Assembly (NCBI GenBank): GCA_030390025.1
Contig: CM059431.1
Coordinates: forward strand, 102,116,001-102,180,000
Reading direction: 5' to 3'
DNA length: 64,000 bases
Source: Squalus acanthias
Lineage: Eukaryota
In this document: one piece after another, positions 5,011-54,243 of the stretch
How the letters are laid out: the number at the start of each line of letters is the position of its first letter
Numbering within the stretch: the first letter of the stretch is position 1
Translations under genes and position numbers: made by a program
Notes under the pieces: generated by a model
Told to the model about the DNA's origin: nothing
The model's database searches: none
Seen by the model: only the letters and a program-made list of their open reading frames with translations

Positions 5011-5585
5011 GTCGATGATACTGTTTCCTTTGCAAGGTATTCCGTTCCATTTGCAAGTGCTTCATGTGTTCACGGAGTCCCTTTACTCTGCCCTTCACAT
5101 AAAGTCATTCATTATTCTTCCAGCTAAATGAATTGGGTTGGAGTGGGGTCACCTTAAGATGACAGCTCATCAGCTCCAGAAATTACAGCTGTAACAACCC
5201 CAGAGATGTCGATCTTTCCGGCTTGATCACACATACTTGCTACAAAATGGAAAGCAAGCCCATCGTCCGAGACGTAACGTTACTCAGATAACAATCGAAG
5301 TATTAGGCTGGTTACCAGCCAGCAAACACGCTTGTACTCGCTGCCTCAATTGAAATTAAATTAAATGGCCGACATATCTAAACCTAATGTGTAGTGTTTG
5401 TGTTAACAGCTCAGAACTGAACTTTCCAAAGCTGGCCAATGTGAGATTTTTCTGATGTCCACGTTGTCCAGATTGGTCTACATTTTGAGCTTGTGTGCTC
5501 TGTGCTTCTCGATGTACATGAAAATGCTCTGGAGAGACCGGGCGTAAAATCTAAATGTATCCACGCACAGGAATGGTCAACACGA

Positions 5586-7213
5586 GTTGGGACGTTGCGT
5601 AGTTGGGACGTGGTGCAGTTGGGACGGGGTGCAGTTGGGACGGGGTGTAGCCGGGACGGGGTGCAGTTGGGACGGGGTGTAGCCGGGACGGGGTGTAGCC
5701 GGGACGGGGTGCAGTCGGGACGGGGTGTAGCCGGGACGGGGTGTAGCCGGGACGGGGTGCAGTTGGGACGGGGTGCCAGTTGGGACGGGGTGCAGTTGGG
5801 GACGGGGTGCAGTTGGGACGGGGTGTAGTTGGACGGGGTGTAGTTGGGACGGGGTGTAGTTGGGACGGGGTGTAGTTGGGACGGGGTGCAGTTGGGACGG
5901 GGTGTAGTCGGGACGGGGTGTAGCCGGGACGGGGTGTAGCCGGGACGGGGTGCAGTTGGGACGGGGTGCAGTTGGGACGGGGTGTAGTTGGGACGGGGTG
6001 TAGTTGGGACGGGGTGTAGTTGGGACGGGGTGTAGTTGGGACGGGGTGTAGTCGGGACGGGGTTAAGCCGGGACGGGGTGCAGCCGGGACGGGGTGCAGT
6101 TGGGACGGGGTGCAGTTGGGACGGGGTGTAGTTGGGACGGGGTGTAGTTGGGACGTGGTGTAGCCGGGACGGGGTGTAGCCGGGACGGGGTGTAGTTGGG
6201 ACGGGGTGTAGTTGGGACGGGGTGTAGCCGGGACGGGGTGCAGTTGGGACGGGGTGTAGTTGGGACGGGGTGTAGCCGGGACGGGGTGCAGTTGGGACGG
6301 GGTGCAGTTGGGACGGGGTGTAGTTGGGACGGGGTGTTAGTTTGGACGTGGTGTAGCCGGGACGGGGTGTAGCCGGGACGGGGTGTAGTTGGGACGGGGT
6401 GTAGTTGGGACGGGGTGTAGCCGGGACGGGGTGTAGCCGGGACGGGGTGTAGCCGGGACGGGGTGCAGTCGGGACGGGGTGTAGCCGGGACGGGGTGTAG
6501 CCGGGACGGGGTGCAGTTGGGACGGGGTGCAGTTGGGACGGGGTGTAGCCGGGACGGGGTGTAGCCGGGACGGGGTGCAGTTGGGACGGGGTGCAGTTGG
6601 GACGGGGTGTAGCCGGGACGGGGTGCAGTCGGGACGGGGTGCAGTCGGGACGGGGTGTAGTCGGGACGGGGTGTAGTCGGGACGGGGTGTAGTCGGGACG
6701 GGGTGCAGCCGGGACGGGGTGCAGTTGGGACGGGGTGCAGTTGGGACGGGGTGCAGTTGGGACGGGGTGTAGTTGGGACGGGGTGCAGTTGGGACGGGGT
6801 GCAGCCGGGACGGGGTGTAGCCGGGACGGGGTGTAGCCGGGACGGGGTGTAGTTGGGACGGGGTGTAGTTGGGACGGGGTGTAGTTGGGACGGGGTGTAG
6901 TTGGGACGGGGTGTAGCCGGGACGGGGTGCAGCCGGGACGGGGTGCAGTTGGGACGGGGTGCAGTTGGGACGGGGTGTAGTTGGGACGGGGTGTAGCCGG
7001 GACGGGGTGTAGTTGGGACGGGGTGTAGTTGGGACGTGGTGTAGCCGGGACGGGGTGTAGCCGGGACGGGGTGTAGTTGGGACGGGGTGTAGTTGGGACG
7101 TGGTGTAGCCGGGACGGGGTGAAGTTGGGACGGGGTGTAGTTGGGACGGGGTGTAGTTGGGACGGGGTGTAGTTGGGACGGGGTGCAGTTGGGACGGGGT
7201 ACAGTTGGGACGC
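5586..7213. repeat. G-rich 16-bp minisatellite, about 100 copies
   Basis: Unit GGGACGGGGTG(T/C)AG(TT/CC/TC). Confidence 0.97.
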
Positions 7214-14290: not shown

Positions 14291-14399
14291 CTTTATCAAT
14301 CACAGAGAGAATAAACAACATCAAATAAATTATAGACAAATAAACAAAGGCCAAGACATGTAAAAATGTGGAATGGCGGACTGGCTCCTGACAAGGATC

Positions 14400-15246
14400 T
14401 ATCCTTGGCCCCCTCCTATTTCTCATCTACATGCTGCCCCTGGCGACATCATCCGAAAACACAGGATCCATAGGTACGCTGATGACACCCAGCTCTAGCT
14501 CGCCACCAACTCTCTCGATCCCTCCACTATCTCTGATTTGTCACACTGCTTGTCCGCTCATGTATCCACTCCATCACCAAGACCGCCTACTTCCACCTCC
14601 ATAACATCGCCCGACTCCGCCCCTACCTCAGCTCATCTGCTGCTGAGACCCTCACCCATGCCTTTGTTACCTCTAGACTCGACTATTCCAACACACTCCT
14701 GGCCGGCCTCCCATCTTCCACCCTACGTAAACTTGAGCTCATCCAAAACTCTGTTGCCCGTGTCCTAACTCGCACCAAGTCCCGTTCACCCATCACCCCC
14801 TGTGCTCGCTGACCTACATTGACTCCCGTTCTGGCAAAGCCTCAATTTTTAAATTCTCATTCTTGTTTTCAAATCCCTCCATGGCCTCGCCCCTCCCTAT
14901 CTCTGTAATTTCTCCAGCCCTACAAAACCTCCAAAATATCTGCGCTCCTCCAATTCTGCCCTCTTGAGGATCCCCGATTTCCATCGCTCCACCATTGGCG
15001 GCCTTGCCTTCAGCTGCCTGGGGCCCTAAGCTCTGGAATTCCCTCCCTAAACCTCTCCGCCTCTCTCTCCTCCTTTAGGACGCTCCTTAAAGCCCACCTC
15101 TTTAACCAGGCTTTTGGTCACCTGTCCTAATATCTCCTTCTGTGTCTTGGTGTCAGATTTTTGTTAGATAATCGCTCCTGTGAAGCGCCTTGGGAGATTT
15201 TACTACGTTAAAGGCGCTATATAAATGCAAGTTATTGTTGTTGTTG
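14400..15246 (+). mobile_element. L2 LINE fragment including a YADD remnant
   Basis: tacgctgatgacacccagctc (YADDTQL); later RLDYSN and IQNS motifs; L2 tail. Confidence 0.88.
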
Positions 15247-15721
15247 TGTCACTAACCTTGCTCGGCACTCTGTTGATATTAATAATACCCACTGACGTGA
15301 GATGCAGCTCAGGCTTTGGGATTCAGATCATGATCACACCCCAAAGCTTTCTCCACTCCTACATTCTCACCATTATCGACGTTTCCACCCAAAATATTAA
15401 AATTTTATTACTAACTCTAAACAGATCACATTACAACAATACTGTATTATAAGTCTTTACTCTAGTCTCGCTCTCCCATCTAATAACTCCCTCCAAGGAA
15501 AAATAACTTTACTTTTACAGATGCCTTAAATTTGGCCGCCATGTCCTATTTATCGTTTTCCAGGGTCCCCAACGTTTGGGACGTTTTACAACGCAAGGCG
15601 TAATATAAATGCAGGTTGTTGTTGTTTGATCTGTTAGCGGCCAATTTGCATTAATGCCCCCTTGTCCTAGACTCTCTGACAAGTGGAAACATCTTCTCTA
15701 TGTCTACCCTATCGATCCCCT

Positions 15722-16270
15722 TCAGTGCAGTTTTGGTCGCCTTATCTGAGGAAGGATGTTCTTGCCATGGAAGGAGTTCAGCGAAGATTCACAAGGCTGA
15801 TACCTGGGATGGCAGGAATGACGTATGAAGAGAGATTGGGTCGATTGGGCTTATACTCGCTGGAGTTTAGAAGAATGAGAGGGGATCTCATTGAAACTTA
15901 TAAAATTCTGACAGGACAGGACAAACTAGATGCAGGAAGGATGTTCCCGATGGTCGGGGAGTCCAGAACCAGGGGTCACAGTCTAAGGATAAGGGGTAAG
16001 CCATTTAGGACAGAAATGAGGAGGAATTTCTTCACCCAGAGAGTGGTGAACCTGTGGAATTCTCTGCCACAGAAGGCAGTAGAGGCCAATTCATTAAATA
16101 GATTCAAGAATGAGTTGGATATATTTCTTAAGGCTAAAGGGATATGGGGAGAAAGCAGGGACAGGGTACTGAATTTGGATGATCAGCCATGATCGCATTG
16201 AATGGCGGAGCAGGCTAGAGGGGCCGAATGGCCTACTCCTGCTCCTATCTTCTATGATTCTATGATTCTA
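15722..16270 (+). mobile_element. CR1 LINE 3' fragment
   Basis: VQFWSPYLRKD..GMTYEERLGRLGLYSLE..; tail (ttctatga)n; same subfamily as 61842-62317. Confidence 0.92.
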
Positions 16271-16789
16271 TGAGAATGTTAAAGAACCCTCCGTCGGGTC
16301 ACCCCTCAACCTTCTCTTTTGCAGAGCAAGGGGCCCCAGCCTGCTCAATCGGTCCTCGCCATTCCAGGTTAACGTTCTCGTAAATCTTTTCCGTAGAATA
16401 CCAAAAGGGCAGGGCCAGTGGCGAGCGCGCGTGATGTCAAAGCTGAACACATTTCCTTGAAATGCCAATCTGTGTGGTTACGTGCCGTAACCGCGCTAAC
16501 CTCCACACTGCTGTGCCATCAGTCATCGCACTCATAGTTTAATAAAGACAATCACAGCCAAGTGCAGAGTCAGGATTTACACAGACTGCTGTTCAATCTC
16601 ATTCAAACTAATCAGGGAAAACTATGATGAAAAGTGATGGAATTTTTCACCTCTGTCAGAGTGCGCCACGATTGAATGAAGGACATTTGTTCTTCGTGCT
16701 GCTGTGCCAATTAACGTTTCTGCAGGTTATTTTACAGGACGTGAAGCTTTAGACCCACTAACACCATTGAAGGAAAGGGAAAATAGCAA

Positions 16790-18518
16790 CAGCTTTCATT
16801 CATATAGCGCCTTTAACATAGTAAAACATCCCAAGGCGCTGCACAGGAGCGTAAATCAGACAAGATTTGACAACGAGCCACGTAAGGAGATATTAGGACA
16901 GGCTTGGTCAAAGTGGAAGGTTTTAAGAAGCGTCTTAAAGGAGGAGGAGAGGCGGACTGAGATGTTCAGGTGGGGTTGGCTGAGCTTGCCCTGTTTTGGA
17001 AAAGCCCAGTACAAAGAAGCACAGAGACCACATTCCTTTAGCTCAACAACAACTTGCATTTATATAGCGTCTTTAAAATAGTAAAACTGCCCAAGGCGCT
17101 TCACAAGAGCGATTATCAAATGAAATTTGACACCGAGCCACATAAGGAGATATTAGGGCAGATGATCAAAAGCTCGGTCACAGAGGTAGGTTTTAAGGAG
17201 CATCTTAAAGGAGGAGAGAGGTGTAGAGGTGCAGGGAGGGAATTCCAGAGATTAGGGCCCAGGCAGCCGATGGCACGACCACCAATGGTGGAGCGATGGA
17301 AATCGGGGATGTTGAAGCCAATGGTGGAGCGATGGAAATCAGGGGGATGTGCAAGAGGCCAGAATTGGAGGAGCGCCGAGATCTTGGCGGGTTGGAGAGC
17401 CGGAGGAGGTTACAGAGATCGGGACGGAGCTAATAGCTTTAGGTTCATTATGGCCCATCAAAGGAAAGGGAAAACAGAACGATACGAGATGGGAAAAACT
17501 CCTCAGGTGTGGCAGATTAGTTACTGCACGAGGGGCTTGGATTGGAACAGCTGATTTACTTAACCAAGGATCTTGCTTGACTCGTTCTTTACATATTTTC
17601 CCTTCACTTTGACAAAGAGACTGAGCCATTCGCCGTAACAATTCACAAGCTGTGATCTTAGACTGGGTTTAAATATTTTGTATTGGCACTGGGTGGCTGA
17701 TAAGGAGAATGTGGAGTAACAATGAGCTAGACTTGCATCTTTGGTTTCGAATTCAATGCTAGTACTGGGTTGCTGAAAGTGCGATGCCGTACAACAAATG
17801 TGCAGAGGCCAGTTACAGGGAGCAATCAAATTTAATCTTCCTCCCTTTGCAACAATAATGAATACTAACATACTCAGGAATAATTAATGCTAACATAACT
17901 ATTAGCAGCAAATATGCTACAGTGTCGTGATCCAAAATTTATAAAGCATCTTTAACGCAATAAAACGTCCCAAGGCGCTTCACAGGGGTGTTACCAAAAC
18001 CCCCCAAAATTTGACACCAAGCCACATAAGGAGATATTAGGGCAGATGGGGTAGATTTATAGGAACGTCTTAAAGGAGGAAAGAGAGGTAGAGGGGCGGA
18101 GAGGTTTAGGGAGGGAATTCCAGAGTTTAGGACCCAGGCAGCTGAAGGCACGGCCACCAATGGTGGAGCATTTAAAATCGGGGATGTTCAAAAGGTCAGA
18201 ATAGGGGGAGCACAGAGGTCTAGGGGGATTACAGGGCTGGAGGAGATTACAGGGATAAGGAGGGGGCGAGGCCATGGAGGGATTTGAAAACAAGGATGAG
18301 AATTTTAAAATTGAGGTGTTGCTTAACTGGAGCCAGTGTAGGTCAGCGAGCACAGGGGAGATGGGTGAGCGAGGCTTGGTGCGAGTTAGGACACGGGCAG
18401 CCGAGTTTTGGATGACCTCAAGTTTATGGAGGGTGGAATGTGGGAGGCCGGTCAGGTAGGCATTGGAATAGTCAAGTCTAGAGGTGACAAAGGCATGGAT
18501 GAGGGTTTCAGCAGCGGA
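16790..18518 (-). mobile_element. Cluster of three L2 3' fragments (about 16790-16960, 17045-17420, 17940-18518)
   Basis: Reverse complements of the L2 tail and GGRAF..PKLWNSLP. Confidence 0.8.
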
Positions 18519-18684
18519 TAAACTTCTTAAACTGACAATTTAAGTATGATTTTTACTTTTCACACCGGTATGAACTAGTTTGCTGAGCCTCCGATAAAAG
18601 TTTGCCCGAAGTGTAACAGAAATATATTCCTGTCAAAGCCAAAGATTCCAAGCTTCCTCTCCCTGTTCCCAATTTTTCATCTTA

Positions 18685-19130
18685 AGAAGAGGAGGAGGCC
18701 ATTCTGACCCTCGTGCCTGTTCCGCCATTCAATTACATCACGGCTGATCTGTGTCTTAACTCCATCTACCCGCCTTGGTTCCGTGACCCTTAATGCCCTT
18801 ACCCAACAAAACTCTATCAATCTCAGTTTTGAAATTCTCAACTGACCCCCAGCCTCAACAGCTTTTTCTGGGGAGAGAGTTCCAGATTTCCACCACCCTT
18901 TGTGTGAAGAAGTGCTTCCTGACATCACCCCTGAACGGCCTGGCTCTAATTTTAAGGTTATGCCCCCTTGTTCTGGACTCCCCCCACCAGAGGAAATAGT
19001 TTCTCTCTCTCTACCCCATCAACTCCTTTAATCATCTTGAACACCTCAATTAGATCACCCCTTAATCTTCTAAACTCGAGGGGATACAAGCCTAGTCTGT
19101 GCAGCCCGTCCTCATAATGTAACCCTTTAC
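18685..19130 (-). mobile_element. CR1 LINE 3' fragment
   Basis: Reverse complement of [28 protein letters not shown]; same subfamily as 37625-38035. Confidence 0.85.
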
Positions 19131-19384
19131 CACATGCCTGCTGTAATTTAGTCCCTGATTGGACTACCTTAGGATTCCTTTTTGTAACTAAAACTATGGC
19201 AACACTAGACTGACTTGTGGTGTTCTCTCTCGCTGATGCTCACCAGCTGAGCTCACACATGAACACTGGTCATTTGGGCAAAGTAACAGAGGGCGTCTGT
19301 GGGACCGTATCCCAGGACGGGTCAATGGCTTCAGCCAATGGAGAGAGGAAGAATGTGAAAACAGATACACTATGAACTTAACAG

Positions 19385-20945
19385 AAGAACATAAGAAATA
19401 GGAGCAGGAGTCGGCCATTTGGCCCATCGAGCCTGCTCCGCCATTCAATAAGATCATGGCTGATCTTCGACCTCATCCCCACATTCCTGCACTGTCCCCA
19501 TATCCCTTGATTACCTTAATATTCAAAAATCTATTGATCTCTGTCTTGAATATATTCAACAACTGAGCCGCCACAGCCCTCTGGGGTAGAGAATTCCAAA
19601 GATTCACCACCCTCTGAGTGAAGAAATTTCTCCTCATCTCAGTCCTAAATGGCCGACCCCTTATTCTGAGACTGTGACCCCTGGTTCTAGACTCCCCAGC
19701 CAGGGGAAACATCCTCCCTGCATCTACCCTGTCAAGCCCTGTAAGAATTTTGTATGTTTCAATGAGATCACCTCTCATTCTTCTAAACTCTAGAGAATAT
19801 ATGTGAGAAGTCGCACAACACCAGGTTATAGTCCAACAGTTTTATTTGAAATCACAAGCTTTCGGAGCGCTGCTCCTTTGTCAGGTGACGTCACCTGACG
19901 AAGGAGCAGCGCTCTGAAAGCTTGTGATTTCAAATAAAACTGTTGGACTATAACCTGGTGTTGTGCAACTTCTCACATTTGTCCACCCCAGTCCAACACC
20001 GGCATCTCCGCATCATGGCTAGAGAATATAAGCCTAGTCTACTCAATCTCTCCTCATAGGACAATCCCCCCATCCCAGGAACCAGTCTGGTGAACCTTCG
20101 TTGCACTCCCTCTATGGCAAGTATATCCTTCCTTAGGGAAGGAGACCAAAACTGTACGCAATACTCCAGGTGTGGTCTCACCAGGGCCCTATATAATTGC
20201 AGTAAGATGTCTTTACTCTTATACTCAAATCCTCTTGTAATAAAGGCCAACATACCATTTGCTTTCCTAATTGCTTGCTGTACCTGCATGTTAACTTTCA
20301 GTGATTCGTGTACAAGGACACCCAGGTCCCTCTGAACACCAACATTTCCCAATCTCTCACCATTTAAAAAATACTCTGCTTTTCTATTTTTCCTACCAAA
20401 GTGGATAACTTCACATTTCCCCACATTATATTCCATTTGCCATGTTCTTGCCCACTCACTTAGCCTGTCTACATCCCCTTGAAGCCTTCTTGCATTCTCC
20501 TCACAACTTACATTCCCACCCAGCTTTGTATCATCAGCAAACTTGGATATATTATATTTGGTCCCCTCATCCAAATCATTGATTGTGAATAGCTGAGGCC
20601 CAAGCACAGATTCTTGGGGTACCCCACTAGTTACAGCCTGCCAACCTGAAAATGACACGTTTATTCGTACTCTCTGTTTTCTGTCCGTTAACCAATCCTC
20701 AATCTATGCTAGTATATTACCCCCAATCCCATGAGCACTAATTTTGTTTAATAACCTCTTGTGTGGCACCTTATCGAATGCCTTCTGAAAATCCAAATAC
20801 ACCACATCTACTGGTTTCCCCCTTATCTATTCTGCTAGTTACAACCTCAAAAAACTCTAACAGATTTGTCAAACACGATTTCCCTTTCATAAATCCATGT
20901 TGACTCTGCCCAATCCTATTATTATTTTCTAAGTGCCCTGTTAAC
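19385..20945 (-). mobile_element. CR1 LINE (RT domain to 3' end), interrupted by a Penelope-like insertion
   Basis: QHGFMKGKSCLTNLLEFF, GVPQESVLGP, SKFADDTKL; closely similar to 52815-54243. Confidence 0.95.
19802..20018 (+). mobile_element. Fold-back Penelope-like mini-element with two hammerhead cores and a 12-bp TSD
   Basis: 88-bp inverted arms centred on gtgac|gtcac, a 41-nt tail, and TSD ctagagaatata at 19790-19801 and 20019-20030. Confidence 0.8.
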
Positions 20946-21013
20946 ATTTGATGCAATGACATTTTAGATAATACATTTTTAAAAAAAGAAAAATTCGATA
21001 AAACAGAATGTAC

Positions 21014-21164: not shown

Positions 21165-22412
21165 GAATGAAAGACTTGCATTTCTATAGCGCCTTTCACA
21201 ACCTCAGGGCGTCCCAAAGCGCTTCACAGCCAATGTGAAGTGTAGTCACTGTTTTAATGTGGGAAACGCGGCAGCCAATTGGCGCGCAGCAAGCTCCCAC
21301 ACACAGCAATGTGATAACGACCGGATAATCTGCTTTTTTTTAATTATTCATTTCTGGGAGGTGGGCGTCGCTGGCCAGGCTAGCATTTATTGCCCATCCC
21401 TAGTTGCCCTTGAGAAGGTGGTGGTGAGCCGCCTTCTTGAACCGCTGCAGTCCGTGTGGTGAAGGTACTCCCACAGTGCTGTTAGGTAGGGAGTTCCAGG
21501 ATTTTGACCCAGCGACGATGAAGGATCGGCGATATACTTCCAAGTCAGGATGGTGGGGAACTTGGAGGAGAACTTGGAGGTGGTGGTGTTCCCACGCGCC
21601 TGCTGCCCTTGTCCTTCTAGGTGGAAGAGGTCGCGGGTTTGAGAGGTGCTGCCGAAGAAGCCTTGGCGAGTTGCTGCAGTGCATCTTGTAGATGGTACAC
21701 ACTGCAGCCACGCTACGCCGGTGGTGGAGGGAGTGAATGTTTAAGGTGGTGGATGGGGTTCCAATCAAGTGGGCTGCTTTGTCCTGGATGGTGTCGAGCT
21801 TCTTGAGTGTTGTTGGAGCTGCACTCACCCAGGCAAGTGGAGAGTATTCCCTCACACTCCTTACTTGTGCCTTGTAGATGGTGTTGGTTGAGGGATAAAT
21901 ATTGGCCCTGGGGACTGACACTGGGGAGAGCTCTTCTTCGAAATAGTGCCATGGGATCTTTTACGTTGACCTGAAAGGGCAGTTGAATGTCTCATCCAAA
22001 AGACAGCACCTCTGACAGTGCAGAGCTCCCTCAGTACTGACCCTCCAACAGTGCAGAGCTCCCTCAGTGCTGCCCCTCCGACAGTGCAACGCTCCCTCAG
22101 TACTGCCCCTCCGACAGTGCAGCGCTCCCTCAGTACTGCCATTCAGACAGTGCAGCGCTCCCTCAGTACTGTCCCTCCGACAGTGCAGCGCTCCCTCAGT
22201 ACTGCCCCTCCGACAGTGCGGTGCTCCCTCAGTACTGCTCCTCCAACAGTGCGGCGCTCCCTCAGTACTGCCCCTCCGACAGTGCGGCGCTCCCTCAGTA
22301 CTGCTCCTCCGACAGTGCGGCGCTCCCTCAGTACTGCCCCTCCGACAGTGCGGTGCTCCCTCAGTACTGCTCCTCCGACAGTGCGGCGCTCCCTCAGTAC
22401 TGCCCCTCCGAC
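21165..22412 (-). mobile_element. Deu-domain SINE split by a LINE insertion, with an internal 33-bp array
   Basis: Tail at 21165-21335, core at 21878-22010, array at 22010-22412. Confidence 0.85.
21337..21877 (-). mobile_element. Jockey/CR1-group non-LTR retrotransposon 3' fragment
   Basis: YKAQVRSVREYSPLAW..LKKLDTIQDKAA..HSLHHRR..SKSWNSLP. Confidence 0.8.
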
Positions 22413-24009: not shown

Positions 24010-24712
24010 TAAAAACAACAACAACTTGCATTTATATAGCACCTTTAACGTAGTAAAATGTCTCGGTGTCAAATTTTGTTTAATAATCGCTCCTGTGAAG
24101 CGCCGCGGGACATAAGAACATAAGAAATAGGAGCAGGAGTAGACCAAGCAGGCTCGAGGGGCCGATTGGCCTACTCCTGCTCCTATTTCTTATGTTCTTA
24201 TGTCCCAAGGCGCTTCACAGGAGCGATTATCAGACAAAATTCGACACTGAACCACATAAGGAGATATTAGGACAGGTGACCAAAAGCTTGGTCAAAGAGG
24301 TCGGTTTTAAGGAGCATCTTAAAGGAGGCGAGAGAGGCGGAGAGGTTTAGGCAGGGAATTCCAGAGCTTAGGGCCCAGGCAACAGAAGGCACGGCCACCA
24401 ATGGTTGAGTGATTATAATCAGGGATGCTCAAGAGGGCAGAATTGGAGGAGCGCAGATATCTCGGGGGGTTGTGGGGCTGGAGGAGATTACAGAGATAGG
24501 GAGGGAGCGAGGCCATGGAGGGATTTGAAAACAAGGTTGAGATTTTAAATCGAGGTGTTGCCGGACCGGGAGCCAATGTAGGTCAGCGAGCACAGGGGGC
24601 GATGGGTGAACGGGGCTCGGTGCGAGTTCGGACACGGGCAGCAGAGTTTCAAACTGAGCTCAAGTTTATGTAGGGTAGAAGACGGAAGGCCGGCCAAGAG
24701 AGCGTTGGAATA
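24010..24712 (-). mobile_element. L2 LINE 3' fragment containing a fold-back CR1 tail
   Basis: L2 motifs on the minus strand; inverted repeat at 24063-24250. Confidence 0.85.
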
Positions 24713-27237: not shown

Positions 27238-28162
27238 AAAGAAAGAAAGACTTGCATTTATATAGCGCCTTTCACGACCACCGGACATCCCAAAGCGCTT
27301 TACAGCCAATGAAGTACTTTTACTGTTGCAAGATCCCACAAACAGCAATGAGATAAATGACCAGATCATTTGTTTTTTTAGTGATGTTGGTTGAGGGATA
27401 AATATTGGCCCCAGGACACCAGGGAGAACTTCCCTGCTCTTCTTCAAAATAATGGGAATGGGATCTTTGACATCCACCTGAGGGGGCAGACAGGGCCTCG
27501 GTTTAACGTCTCATCTGAAAGACGGCACCTCCGACAGTGCAGCGCTCCCTCAGTACTGCCCCTCCGACAGTGCAGCGCTCCCTCGGTACTGCCCCTCCGA
27601 CAGTGCAGCGCTCCCTCAGTACTGCCCCTCCGACAGTGCAGCGCTCCCTCAGTACTGCCCCTCCGACAGTGCAGCACTCCCTCAGTACCGCCCCTCCGAC
27701 AGTGCGGCGCTCCCTCAGTACTGCCTCTCTGACAGTGCGGCGCTCCCTCAGTACCGCCCCTCCGACAGTGCAGCGCTCCCTCAGTACCGCCCCTCCGACA
27801 GTGCGGCGCTCCCTCAGTACTGCCCCTCCAACAGTGCGGCACTCCCTCAGTACTGCCCCTCCGACAGTGTGGCACTCCCTCAGTACCGCCCCTCCGACAG
27901 TGCAGGACTCCCTCAGTACTGACCCTCCGACAGTGCGGCGCTCCCTTAGTACTGCCCCTCCAACAGTGCAGCACTCCCTCAGTACCGCCCCTCTGACAGT
28001 GCGGCGCTCCCTCAGTACTGGCCCTCTGACAGTGCGGCGCTCCCTCAGTACTGCACTGGGAGTCAGCCTGGGATTTGGGGCTCAAGTTGCTGGAGTGGGA
28101 CTTGAACCCACAACCTTCTGACTCAGAGGTGAGGGTGTTGCCCACTGAGCCACAGCTGACAC
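27238..28162 (-). mobile_element. Deu-domain SINE with about 16 tandem copies of an internal 33-bp unit
   Basis: tRNA head at 28060-28162, array at 27529-28053, then core and tail. Confidence 0.9.
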
Positions 28163-33478: not shown

Positions 33479-34261
33479 ATTACAATGTTTTAATAGACGT
33501 GGACTGCCTTTGATCACCTCCCGCGATCCTTAAATTCAGCATTGTACTGACTTAGCACGTTTTTGGAAACTAACTTGGTTAAGGGGGAAAAAATCTTGCA
33601 ACGAAAAGAGTTTTCCTTAAAAAGTAATGGCTTTGTTTCAAGACAATTGATTCTGAATACTTACAAACCGTAAAGTGTTTGTTTTGTCTCCTGCACCAGT
33701 TTGTAACATTCTGGTTTGCGAATATCTACTTATTAACTGCAGCATGGGGTATAATTCACTACTGTCAGCTTCCTGGTTTTGTTACAGGATGATCATTAGC
33801 CAAAACCTAAATAGCTAAAAATAGGTTTCCAATTAAAGTTTTATGATGAATATTTGCAAATCGTTTTCATTGCACCAGGGATCGCTAAACGATAAAACTA
33901 ACAACCTTGCAAGTGTTTTACAGTGGGGACCTCGCCATGTCAATTTGACCAACGTGACTGAAAGTTGTGCATTACACAAAAGGCAAAATGCTATTTACTG
34001 AAGTACAGCTGTAGAACATCTGGAAAGTGTGAGCCAGACAAAGGCTGGATTGACATTTAGTAAAAGTTCCAAAACCCAACAGTAAAACCAAGGACTGTTT
34101 TCATGACGTGGTGACCGCTTGAGTCGTGCTCACATCAAGGGATTCCTGGCTCCCAGGTAGGAAGCAGGAACCGGCCCTTTTTCGCAGAACCAGCCCTGAG
34201 TACGTTTGAAAATGGGCTCGGAAAGGTCATAAAAATAAAGGCTTAATCAGAGAATGATACA

Positions 34262-34409
34262 AAAGTGAGGAGTTGCACAACACCAGGTTATAGTCCAACA
34301 GCTTTATTTGAAATTCAAATTTGGATTTCAAATAAAGCTATTGGACTATAACCTGGTGTTGTGCGACTCCTCACTTTTGTCCACCCCAGTCCAACACCGG
34401 CATCTCCGC
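34262..34409 (+). mobile_element. Second, shorter fold-back Penelope-like mini-element with a 16-bp TSD
   Basis: Same arms and tail as 19802-20018; TSD atcagagaatgataca at 34246-34261 and 34410-34425. Confidence 0.8.
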
Positions 34410-34715
34410 ATCAGAGAATGATACAGCACAGGAGGAGGCCATTCGGCCCATCGTGCCTGTGCCGGCTCTTTGAAAGAGCTCTCCAATTAGTCCCACTCCC
34501 CCCCCTGCTCTTTCCCCGTAGCCCTGCAAATTTTTCCTGTTCGAGTATTTATCCAATTCATTGCACCAGGGATCGCTATCCAATTTTGAAAGTTACTGTT
34601 GAATCTGCTTCCACCGCCCTTTCAGGCAGCGCGTTCCAGATCACAACAACTCGCTGCGTAAAAAAGATTCTCCTCATCTCCCTTCTGCTTCTTTTGCCAG
34701 TTACCTTGAATCTGT
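34410..34715 (-). mobile_element. CR1 LINE 3' fragment
   Basis: HRFKVTGKR..FFTQRVVVIWNALPE. Confidence 0.82.
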
Positions 34716-42524: not shown

Positions 42525-43441
42525 GAAAAAAAAACTTGCATTTCACAACCTCAGGACGTCCTAAAGCACTTTACAGCCAATGAGGTAACTTTTGAAGTGT
42601 AGTCGATGTTGGAATGTAGGGAAATTTGGCAGACAATTGCGCACAGCAAGCTCCCACAAACAGCAATGTGATTGAGGGATAACTGTTGGCCAGGACCTCA
42701 GGGATAACTCCCCTGCTCTTCTTCAAAATAGTGCCGTGGGATCTTTTACATCCACCTGAGAGGGCAGACAGGGGCCTCATCCGAAAGACGGCACCTCCGA
42801 CAGTGCAGCGCTCCCTCAGTACTGTCCCTCCGACAGTGCAACGCTCACTCAGTACTGCCCCTCCGACAGTGCGGCGCTCCCTCAGTACTGCCCCTCCGAC
42901 AGTGCAGCGGTCACTCAGTACTGTCCCTCCGACAGTGTGGCGCTCCCTCAGTACTGCCCCCCCTCAGTACTGCCCCTCCGACAGTGCGGCGCTCTCTCAG
43001 TACTGCCCCTCCGACAGTGCAGCGCTCACTCAGTACTGTCCCTCCGACAGTGTGGCGCCTCCGACAGTGCTGCGCTCCCCTCAGTACTGCCCCTCCGACA
43101 GTGCGGCGCTCTCTCAGTACTGCCCCTCCGACAGTGCAGCGCTCCCTCAGTACTGCCCCCCCTCAGTATTGCCCCTCCGACAGTGCGGCGCTCCCTCAGT
43201 ACTGCCCCTCCAACAGTGCGGCGCTCCCTCTGTACTGCCCCTCCGACAGTGCGGCGCTCCCTCAGTACTGACCCTCCGATAGTGCGGCGCTCCCTCAGTA
43301 CTGACCCTCCGACAGTGCGTCGCTCCCTCAGTGCTGCACTGGGAGTGTCAGCTAGATTTTTGTGCTCGAGTCCCTGGAGTGGGACTTGAACCCACGTCTG
43401 ACTCAGAGGCGAGTGGGCTACCCACTGAGCCTCAGCTGACA
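42525..43441 (-). mobile_element. Deu-domain SINE with an irregular 33-bp internal array
   Basis: Array at 42795-43336, with head and core present. Confidence 0.88.
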
Positions 43442-52158: not shown

Positions 52159-52814
52159 TCGGAAACCATGCCAAGCAGTTGTGTCCCTGTGCCAACACTA
52201 CCCACCAAGGCCATCATTACTCAAGCTGGTGTACGATGGACCGGAAGTTAATCACGGCCAACATGGTACCAGAAACGGTGCAGTTCACTACACGGAGACC
52301 AACTTTATTAACACTAACGTATGCTCACATACACTGTGATTAAAAATAATGGAAACCCTCTGTGCGGAACAGCAAAAAAACAATGTTTAATTTGTTCTGA
52401 TCTCAAAATCTGGTGATGCGGGACTGGGGAACAACACACACTATAACAAGAAAGTCACACATGATAAATCTGTGCAACTGAACGACATCTGGTACCAACA
52501 CTGTCACACCGACAGTAAAGAGGATTCAGTTGTACATTCACAGAGTTCTTTAGGTGCGATTTGGAACAAAATGCTTACATTTCTGGCTTAAGCAGTATTT
52601 CAAACTCCTGATGCCTGCTTCGTTGATGAGAAAGGCAGAAATGCAATCATTAATGCTTGACAGATAATAAATACTAACCAGGCATGTTTATGGGGCCCAC
52701 ATAGGCAGTGGTAGGTTTAAACCGGTTGCACATAAATGCACAAAGTATTCTGAATAAAATCGGTCTATCAGAAGCTCAAATTGATATGGGAGGCATGATA
52801 TTATGGCATTTATA

Positions 52815-54243
52815 CTATTTAAGAAAGGAGGGAGAGAGAAAACGGGGAACTACAGACCAGTTAGCCTGACATCAGTAGTAGGGAAAATGCTAGAATCTAT
52901 TATTAAGGACGTGGTAACAGGGCACTTAGAAAATAATAGGATTGGGCAGAGTCAACACGGATTTATGAAAGGGAAATCGTGTTTGACGAATCTGTTAGAG
53001 TTTTTTGAGATTGAAATTAGCAGAATAGATAAGGGGGAACCAGTGGACATGGTGTATTTGGATTTTCAGAAGGCATTCGATAAGTTGCCACACAAGAGGT
53101 TATTAAACAAAATTAGTGCTCATGGGATTGGGGGTAATATATTAGCATGGATTGAGGATTGGTTAATGGACAGAAAACAGAGAGTAGGAATAAACGGGTC
53201 ATTTTCGGGTTGGCAGGCTGTAACTAGTGGGGTATTGCAAGGATCAGTGCTTGGACCTCAGCTACTCACAATTTACATCAATGATTTGGATGAGGGGACC
53301 AAATGTAATATATCCAAGTTTGCTGATGATACAAAGCTGGGTGGGAATGTAAATTGTGAGGAGGATGCAAGGAGGCTTCAAGGGGATATAGACAGGCTAA
53401 GTGAGTGGGCAAGAACATGGCAAATGAAATATAATGTGGAGAAATGTGAAGTTATCCACTTTGGTAGGAAAAATAGAAAAGCAGAGTATTTTTTAAATGG
53501 TGAGAGATTGGGAAATGTTGGTGTTCAGAGGGACCTGGGTGTCCTTGTACACGAATCACTGAAAGTTAACATGCAGGTACAGCAAGCAATTAGGAAAGTA
53601 AATGATATGTTGGCCTTTATTACAAGAGGATTTGAGTATAAGAGTAAAGACGTCTTACTGCAATTATATAGGGCCCTGATGAGACCACACCTGGAGTATT
53701 GTGTACAGTTTTGGTCTCCTTACCTAAGGAAGGATATACTTGCCATAGAGGGAGTGCAACGAAGGTTCACCAGACTGATTCCTGGGATGGGGGGATTGTC
53801 CTATGAGGAGAGATTGAGTAGACTAGGCCTATATTCTCTCGAGTTTAGAAGAATGAGAGGTGATCTCATTGAAACGTACAAAATTCTTACAGGGCTTGAG
53901 AGGGTAGATGCAGGGAGGATGTTTCCCCTGGCTGGGGAGTCTAGAACCAGGGGTCACAGTCTCAGAATAAGGGGTCGGCCATTTAGGACTGAGATGAGGG
54001 GAAATTTCTTCACTCAGAGGGTGGTGAATCTTTGGAATTCTCTACCCCAGAGGTCTGTGGAGGCTCAGTTGTTGAGTATATTCAAGACAGAGATCGATAG
54101 ATTTTTGGATATTAAGGGAATCGCGGGATATGGAGATCGGGCGGGAAAGTGGAGATGAGGTAGAAGATCAGCCATGATCTTATTGAATGGCGGAGCAGGC
54201 TCGAGGGGCCGAATGGCCAATTCCAGCTCCTAATTCTTATGTA
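52815..54243 (+). mobile_element. 5'-truncated CR1 LINE with an uninterrupted RT-domain ORF (52803-54158)
   Basis: GNYRPVSLTS, QHGF, YLDFQKAFD, QGSVLGP, SKFADDTKL, TRGH, WNSLP; no endonuclease domain; CR1 3' UTR follows. Confidence 0.96.

Follow-up and report, generated by a model that had tools for sequence, protein, structure and literature searches.

The question raised by this locus is what kind of DNA mirrors itself without a spacer in an intron of FARP1, and how the mirror half came about. The window, which is the whole stretch of DNA analysed here (64,000 nucleotides of contig CM059431.1 of Squalus acanthias), contains the palindrome and its tail as a block of 217 bp within a host retroelement (Table 1). 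We consider it very probable that this insert is the end of a Penelope-like element (PLE). Taking identity and mechanism jointly, the reading we favour, which we regard as moderately probable, is that the insert is a dead EN+ PLE stub produced by synthesis from two nicks and two start sites.

Table 1. Coordinates of the insert, its setting and its sister copy in the window
Feature	Positions	Strand	Remarks
FARP1 intron with the insert	14291..21013	-	tblastn of shark FARP1 proteins; splice ends read
Host non-LTR retroelement, C-terminal part of ORF2, interrupted by the insert	19386..20703	-	RVT_1 match, stop-free ORF2
Left TSD copy	19790..19801	.	exact 12-bp repeat of 20019-20030; single in the empty-site state of the family
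Left arm, inverted 5'-truncated copy of the element end, without tail	19802..19889	-	
Minimal hammerhead, FARP1-sense strand	19852..19888	-	relaxed descriptor only; G8 to A at 19879
Central C and G	19889..19890	.	not family sequence
Right arm, sense 5'-truncated copy of the element end	19890..19977	+	
Minimal type-I hammerhead	19891..19927	+	sole strict descriptor match on either strand of the window
Unpaired 41-nt tail	19978..20018	+	family 3' ends pile up at 20016-20017
Right TSD copy	20019..20030	.	exact match to 19790-19801
Sister insertion	34246..34425	.	94% identity over 90 nt

The initial annotation had described a near-perfect, spacerless palindrome with 88-bp arms, followed by a 41-nt tail and enclosed by a 12-bp TSD, and all of this was confirmed, with 85 of the 88 arm positions complementary, a spacer of 0 and an exact TSD. 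In one comparison the arm length became 89 nt by taking in the last TSD base. The further claim that the block was inserted as a unit agrees with the empty-site state seen in the host repeat family. The 12-bp TSD motif is single in the neighbouring host-repeat paralogue (about 19050-19116), and 87 contig ends of the public run X1 and 31 of X13, among the matches listed, go from 20019 to a consensus that equals positions 19760-19789 of the window. Since the motif is single in the paralogue and the contig ends join 20019 to left-side sequence, we conclude that the 217-bp block went in as one piece. Features that go beyond the initial annotation are helix I, the palindromic helix III and the cut site of the hammerhead, a third arm mismatch (19812/19967) and the sister copy.

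Each of the three mismatches between the arms is a CpG transition (a chance of about 7.5e-4 under random placement), and at two of these positions the family letter is the CpG one, namely at 19915 (94% in X1 and 99% in X13) and at 19967 (89% in X1 and 99% in X13). The two arms were therefore identical at insertion. One of the three is the G8 to A change in the core on the FARP1-sense strand.

The host of the insertion had been given as a CR1. A non-LTR host is supported by a minus-strand RVT_1 match (E 1.7e-5, which does not reach the curated cut-off of Pfam) and by an ORF2 without stops on either side of the insert; from the C-terminal motif and the 3' tail we take the host to be CR1 or CR1-like. 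A relative of the host element lies at 52785-54158 (+), as a CR1-like ORF2 piece of 457 stop-free codons with an RVT_1 match at E 1.1e-31. Two CR1-like 3' ends stand in tandem at 18683-19116 and 19399-20058, about 714 bp apart and 71-79% alike.

The placement in FARP1 is supported by 11 minus-strand exon matches, with none on the plus strand (tblastn, 64-kb window), and by FARP1 as the best match of the RhoGEF exon. The closest named full-length proteins to the FARP1 of the window are from sharks, with 95% to Heptranchias perlo. Within its intron the insert comes about 1.0 kb after the splice donor, and it is most likely neutral. The long dsRNA stem in the FARP1 pre-mRNA, which the initial annotation had put forward, is also predicted by our folding; when flanks of 200 nt are included, the probability exceeds 0.9 for 84 of 86 arm pairs, so that the stub would form one long stem. 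For the insert RNA the predicted folding energy is -167.3 kcal/mol (z = -23.7), a stability that 0 of 200 shuffles reached, while the right arm and tail alone fold no more stably than shuffles (z = -0.01). In this single-arm fold a 9-bp stem between arm and tail (19941-19949/19991-19999, +) encloses what we presume to be the second RT start site. The FARP1 part in the 64 kb holds three hairpins with arms of at least 56 bp. The left arm carries AATAAA in the FARP1 sense at 19841-19846 (-), within the predicted stem.

The hammerhead core quoted in the initial annotation was read correctly on both strands. On the plus strand, helix I has 4 bp (19891-94/19924-27), the core occupies 19895-19901 with an extra A at 19902, and helix II has 5 bp (19903-07/19911-15) with U for C11.1. 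The GAAA is at 19916-19, self-complementary AGCU takes the place of helix III at 19919-22, and the predicted cut falls between 19923 and 19924. As the loose core pattern was not enriched (9 matches against 6.7 expected), the full hammerhead descriptor was used. Its strict match at 19895-19923 compares with an expectation of 0.01, and 1 of 100 shuffles gave any match. An Rfam search found no hammerhead at the insert up to E 10, and a miRNA reading was rejected, the Rfam miRNA-hairpin matches being generic and far below the gathering score.

These features resemble the minimal hammerheads (min-HHR) of metazoan PLEs as given in the accessible text of PMC4209133, which are of type I and have 4-5 bp in helix I, a single unpaired base separating A9 from G10.1 and a palindromic, loopless helix III. 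The paired min-HHR of Schistosoma lie on opposite strands 100-700 bp apart, whereas the cores in the shark insert start about 10 nt apart, and helix II has 7-8 bp in Schistosoma compared with 5 bp here. The shark insert also differs from the metazoan min-HHR of this source in that one of its cores has G8A, and sharks are not named among the min-HHR hosts in the accessible part of that paper.

It is very unlikely that the ribozymes are functional at this site, judging from the modelled folds. The positions C3-G8 and G12-A14 and a cleavable NUH are intact on the plus strand except for C11.1U, and not on the minus strand, where G8A is found. In its partly available text, PMC11167929 reports that G8C abolishes hammerhead cleavage, and by analogy the FARP1-sense core is predicted to be dead through G8A. 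The hairpin is predicted to trap both cores, with a pairing probability of helix I below 1e-35 in context on both strands, and cleavage would not be expected. Metazoan PLE hammerheads are described as weak and working only as dimers (PMC4209133, accessible part). The two cores cannot be each other's dimer partners because they lie on opposite strands, no second same-strand core that could serve as helix III partner was found in the window, and for the isolated cores the double-hammerhead fold was not the lowest-energy dimer.

The family was followed in public sequence runs with a query made up of a single arm, the tail and a 90-nt stretch of flank. X1, from which the window may derive, is not independent of it. 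With the CR1 flank included, 14,647 contigs were drawn from X1 and 2,321 from X13, and the raw-read runs gave 11 reads (X21) and 0 reads (X22); the family is high-copy. Among the matches listed, loose ends with unlike flanks follow 20016-20017 in 68 and 76 cases in X1, 11 in X13 and 3 reads in X21, and the 3' end of the family is fixed at this point. At the other side, loose ends before 19891 share their last letters (42 in X1 with an agreement of 0.45 and 11 in X13 with 0.89, among the matches listed), therefore the parent sequence runs on upstream of 19891. The family base directly upstream is T, in the loose-end consensus of X1 and X13 and in one X13 record, so that the central C and G of the palindrome are not family sequence. 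Short upstream family motifs were absent from the window. A depth profile was rejected as a measure of truncation, as it was bell-shaped on the CR1 flank too and reflects an edge effect.

Joints between distant family positions were also found among the matches listed. Of three joints without intervening letters, two, in X1 contigs, are opposite-strand joints from 19891 to 19978 or 19979, which we interpret as the inverted arm running straight into the tail, without a sense arm. Another X1 contig joins 19966 to 19924 through two letters. A perfect palindrome is unlikely to be spanned by such contigs, and counts of its centres are not derivable from them.

The sister insertion repeats the design within the same window. 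It has a TSD of 16 bp (34246-61/34410-25), arms of about 56 nt and the same tail as the main insert, about 32-36 nt long in this copy, and its centre is a small, palindromic filler of 9-10 nt. The hammerhead core is absent, and the arms stop at 19926/19927, which is 2-3 nt downstream of the predicted cut site. An inverted arm, a sense arm, a one-sided tail and a TSD are thus present in both window copies (2/2), and the centres differ between these two whole copies (n=2). Within each copy, both arms share letters that are variable in the family (19939, 19977). The outer arm end lies at 19977-78 in the main insert and at about 19978-81 in the sister copy; together with the two X1 contigs (19978 and 19979) it recurs at 19977-81 in four cases.

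Structural features of EN+ PLEs found here are the minimal hammerhead, the head-to-head inverted 5'-truncated copy, the one-sided tail and the short TSD. The initial annotation had offered, as one of two explanations, a Penelope-like end inserted as an extremely truncated fold-back, and the geometry, the hammerhead and the family data speak for it. The accessible texts of PMC8557442 and PMC3846280 report that PLE insertions frequently include a 5'-truncated copy in inverted orientation, together with a tail of 30-40 nt on one side. The insert shares with their inverted-pLTR and tail insertions the 5'-truncated copy with an adjacent head-to-head inverted copy. The same sources give palindromes at the inverted junction, and TSDs of 8-10 bp in rotifers. 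Unlike those insertions, ours consists of two ends only, has no ORF and is spacerless, with a tail of 41 nt and TSDs of 12 and 16 bp in the two copies. The truncated pattern of inverted copy and tail is already in print (PMC3846280, PMC8557442, PMC11167929, as far as available), while in the literature searched we found neither a description of spacerless PLE stubs nor one of 5' junctions coinciding with the cut site, and, in the texts available there, no data on shark Penelope hammerheads. The family's sequence words also gave no paper in this literature, outside which most subscription papers lie, and the family may well be catalogued already in Repbase or Dfam.

In the mechanism we favour, the PLE protein would nick the two target strands 12 bp apart, as suggested by the TSD. 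The first nick would prime reverse transcription at the tail end, at about 20017, and the second at another internal start, roughly 40 nt deeper in the element (about 19977). The two cDNAs would then extend to 19891, the first base of helix I, gain one extra base and be joined head to head. As the cDNAs would be joined anew each time, the mirror half would be rebuilt at every insertion. Two start sites in this family are suggested by the recurring ends, and the lizard PLE provides an in vitro precedent, as the purified protein cleaves and extends both strands and two internal RNA starts bound the tail (PMC11167929, accessible text). The inverted repeats have been reported to differ in size between copies (PMC2377424, in part), and the way in which the inverted ends of PLEs are built is still called unresolved in the available text of PMC8557442 and PMC11167929.

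This lizard element, Poseidon PAc of Anolis carolinensis, is similar to the insert in its two internal RT starts bounding the tail, in its AT-rich target and in an A/C-rich start region about 80-120 nt downstream of the core, as described in the accessible part of PMC11167929. The PAc ORF opens at the hammerhead, whereas the frame there in the shark insert stops after nine codons and an ATG stands at the tail end (20014-16). The 3' end of the family coincides with this ATG, which is antisense to FARP1. By eye, the arm end and tail (19970-20016, +) read like a 3' splice site, with a branch-like CTCAC, a pyrimidine run and CAG at 19989-91. From the letters alone, this stretch and the ATG could possibly be an intron acceptor and start codon of the PLE.

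The main rival is self-priming, in which one cDNA folds back and is copied back before it is joined to the target; we consider this unlikely, although it has been proposed for palindromes at PLE inverted junctions (PMC3846280, accessible text). The letters shared by both arms of each copy indicate one template or source locus and fit self-priming equally well, and the small palindromic filler in the centre of the sister copy also favours it. In the same genome, the hairpin 24066-24247 of another family looks like fold-back copying. However, a loopless centre would need several untemplated bases or a sealed hairpin, and self-priming leaves unexplained why the arms stop at 19977-81 in four cases and why two X1 contigs have the inverted arm and tail without a sense arm.

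The other hairpin has 77-nt arms and a 28-nt spacer, and contains an inverted CR1-like 3' end with about 45 nt of the surrounding repeat. To us it looks like fold-back copying that went past the insertion junction.

The second explanation in the initial annotation, a non-autonomous hairpin family, would be a mini-element of 217 bp that PLE enzymes copy as a whole. Non-autonomous PLE derivatives do exist (PMC8557442, and retrozymes in bioRxiv 10.64898/2026.07.22.740005, both in part), and a shared centre had been taken as the mark of a propagating mini-element. Two further joints exactly at 19891 in public contigs, among the matches listed, speak for this explanation. The mark of a shared centre does not separate the two cases cleanly, because independent insertions may repeatedly end at one RNA 5' end, and both joints lead from arm to tail and are not palindromes. 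The sister copy has a different centre and no core (n=2 whole copies), the family continues upstream of the centre, the ribozyme is hidden by the 88-bp stem, and the insert, unlike retrozymes, is not a tandem array. This explanation did not hold up and we regard it as improbable.

Host repair, by template switch or inverted duplication, could have added the inverted arm later to a single inserted stub. The hairpin at 24066-24247 shows that inverted duplications which ignore element borders occur, as its arms include about 45 nt of the neighbouring repeat. In the present family, however, a clean TSD encloses both arms in 2/2 copies, and in both the arm stops at one and the same family position, making later repair highly improbable.

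The identity of the family could also be questioned, as it might be a hammerhead repeat outside the PLEs, such as a SINE-like or retrozyme monomer family. No PLE RT or GIY-YIG was found among 84 window ORFs, and searching with the peptide of the frame that is open across arm and tail gave one candidate and none at E 1 or better, so that no RT/GIY-YIG ORF is tied to the family by these searches. Exact-pattern scans of viral, prokaryote and metagenome collections, which are a weak test for a shark repeat, gave 0 loci apart from 28 metagenome loci, which were dropped as chance matches of 19-27 nt, none extending beyond 27 nt. One X1 contig, among the matches listed, joins the tail end (20017) to 19891 via 25 other letters, like a short tandem unit. 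Against this, the minimal hammerhead, one-sided tail and head-to-head inversion are described jointly for PLEs in the sources available, and retrozymes are themselves reported to be PLE-derived (bioRxiv 10.64898/2026.07.22.740005, accessible part). A family outside the PLEs is therefore very improbable.

The same preprint, as far as its text was available, describes animal non-LTR retrozymes which, like the insert, are non-coding and PLE-derived with a type I hammerhead, and reports them in one cartilaginous fish. They form head-to-tail arrays able to make dimeric ribozymes, whereas the shark insert is a head-to-head pair that is unable to do so. A retrozyme reading of the insert was rejected, as the units are head-to-head and no tandem array is present at the site. 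The contig joining 20017 to 19891 resembles a head-to-tail unit of about 150 nt, possibly a retrozyme-like repeat of the insert's family.

Although no public-run piece spans the compared stretch, an assembly artefact from a fold-back chimeric read has a negligible probability, as a TSD, a one-sided tail and three CpG-type mismatches would be unexpected and the sister copy repeats the design.

Returning to two-start synthesis, the fold-back centres may carry information on the template RNA. We suggest tentatively, and with more doubt than belief, that they are non-random and record the 5' ends of template RNAs. Three events have their 5' end at the start of helix I (19891), namely the main insert, with both of its arms, and two X1 contigs, and two lie at or near the predicted cut, namely 19924 in one X1 contig and 19926/19927 in the sister copy, so that the clustering rests on n=5 events from a biased table (contigs among the matches listed). 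The main insert has an extra G at the 19891 end, like a copied cap, which is absent from the two X1 contigs. In the accessible part of PMC11167929, no RNA reads of the lizard PLE start or end at the cut site, in contrast to the sister copy and the one contig, which end at or near it.

If this were true genome-wide, the shark hairpin stubs, in their thousands, would preserve, as fossils, the traces of in vivo cleavage by the minimal PLE hammerhead. Cleaved RNA would then get inserted, and a spacerless palindrome would be the blunt join of two run-off cDNAs. The single locus is of little weight, being decaying intronic repeat DNA. The family can be useful, as in short, young, TSD-bounded stubs the two RT start sites and the two 5' ends are preserved within about 200 bp. 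Counts of centres across a shark genome would tell two-primer synthesis apart from self-priming and would test cutting in vivo.

Other repeats were observed in the window. A minisatellite with a 16-bp unit occupies 5585-7212, in about 100 copies with 91% matches, and a 33-bp unit forms three dispersed arrays in FARP1 introns, at 22009-22412, 27528-28054 and 42794-43337.
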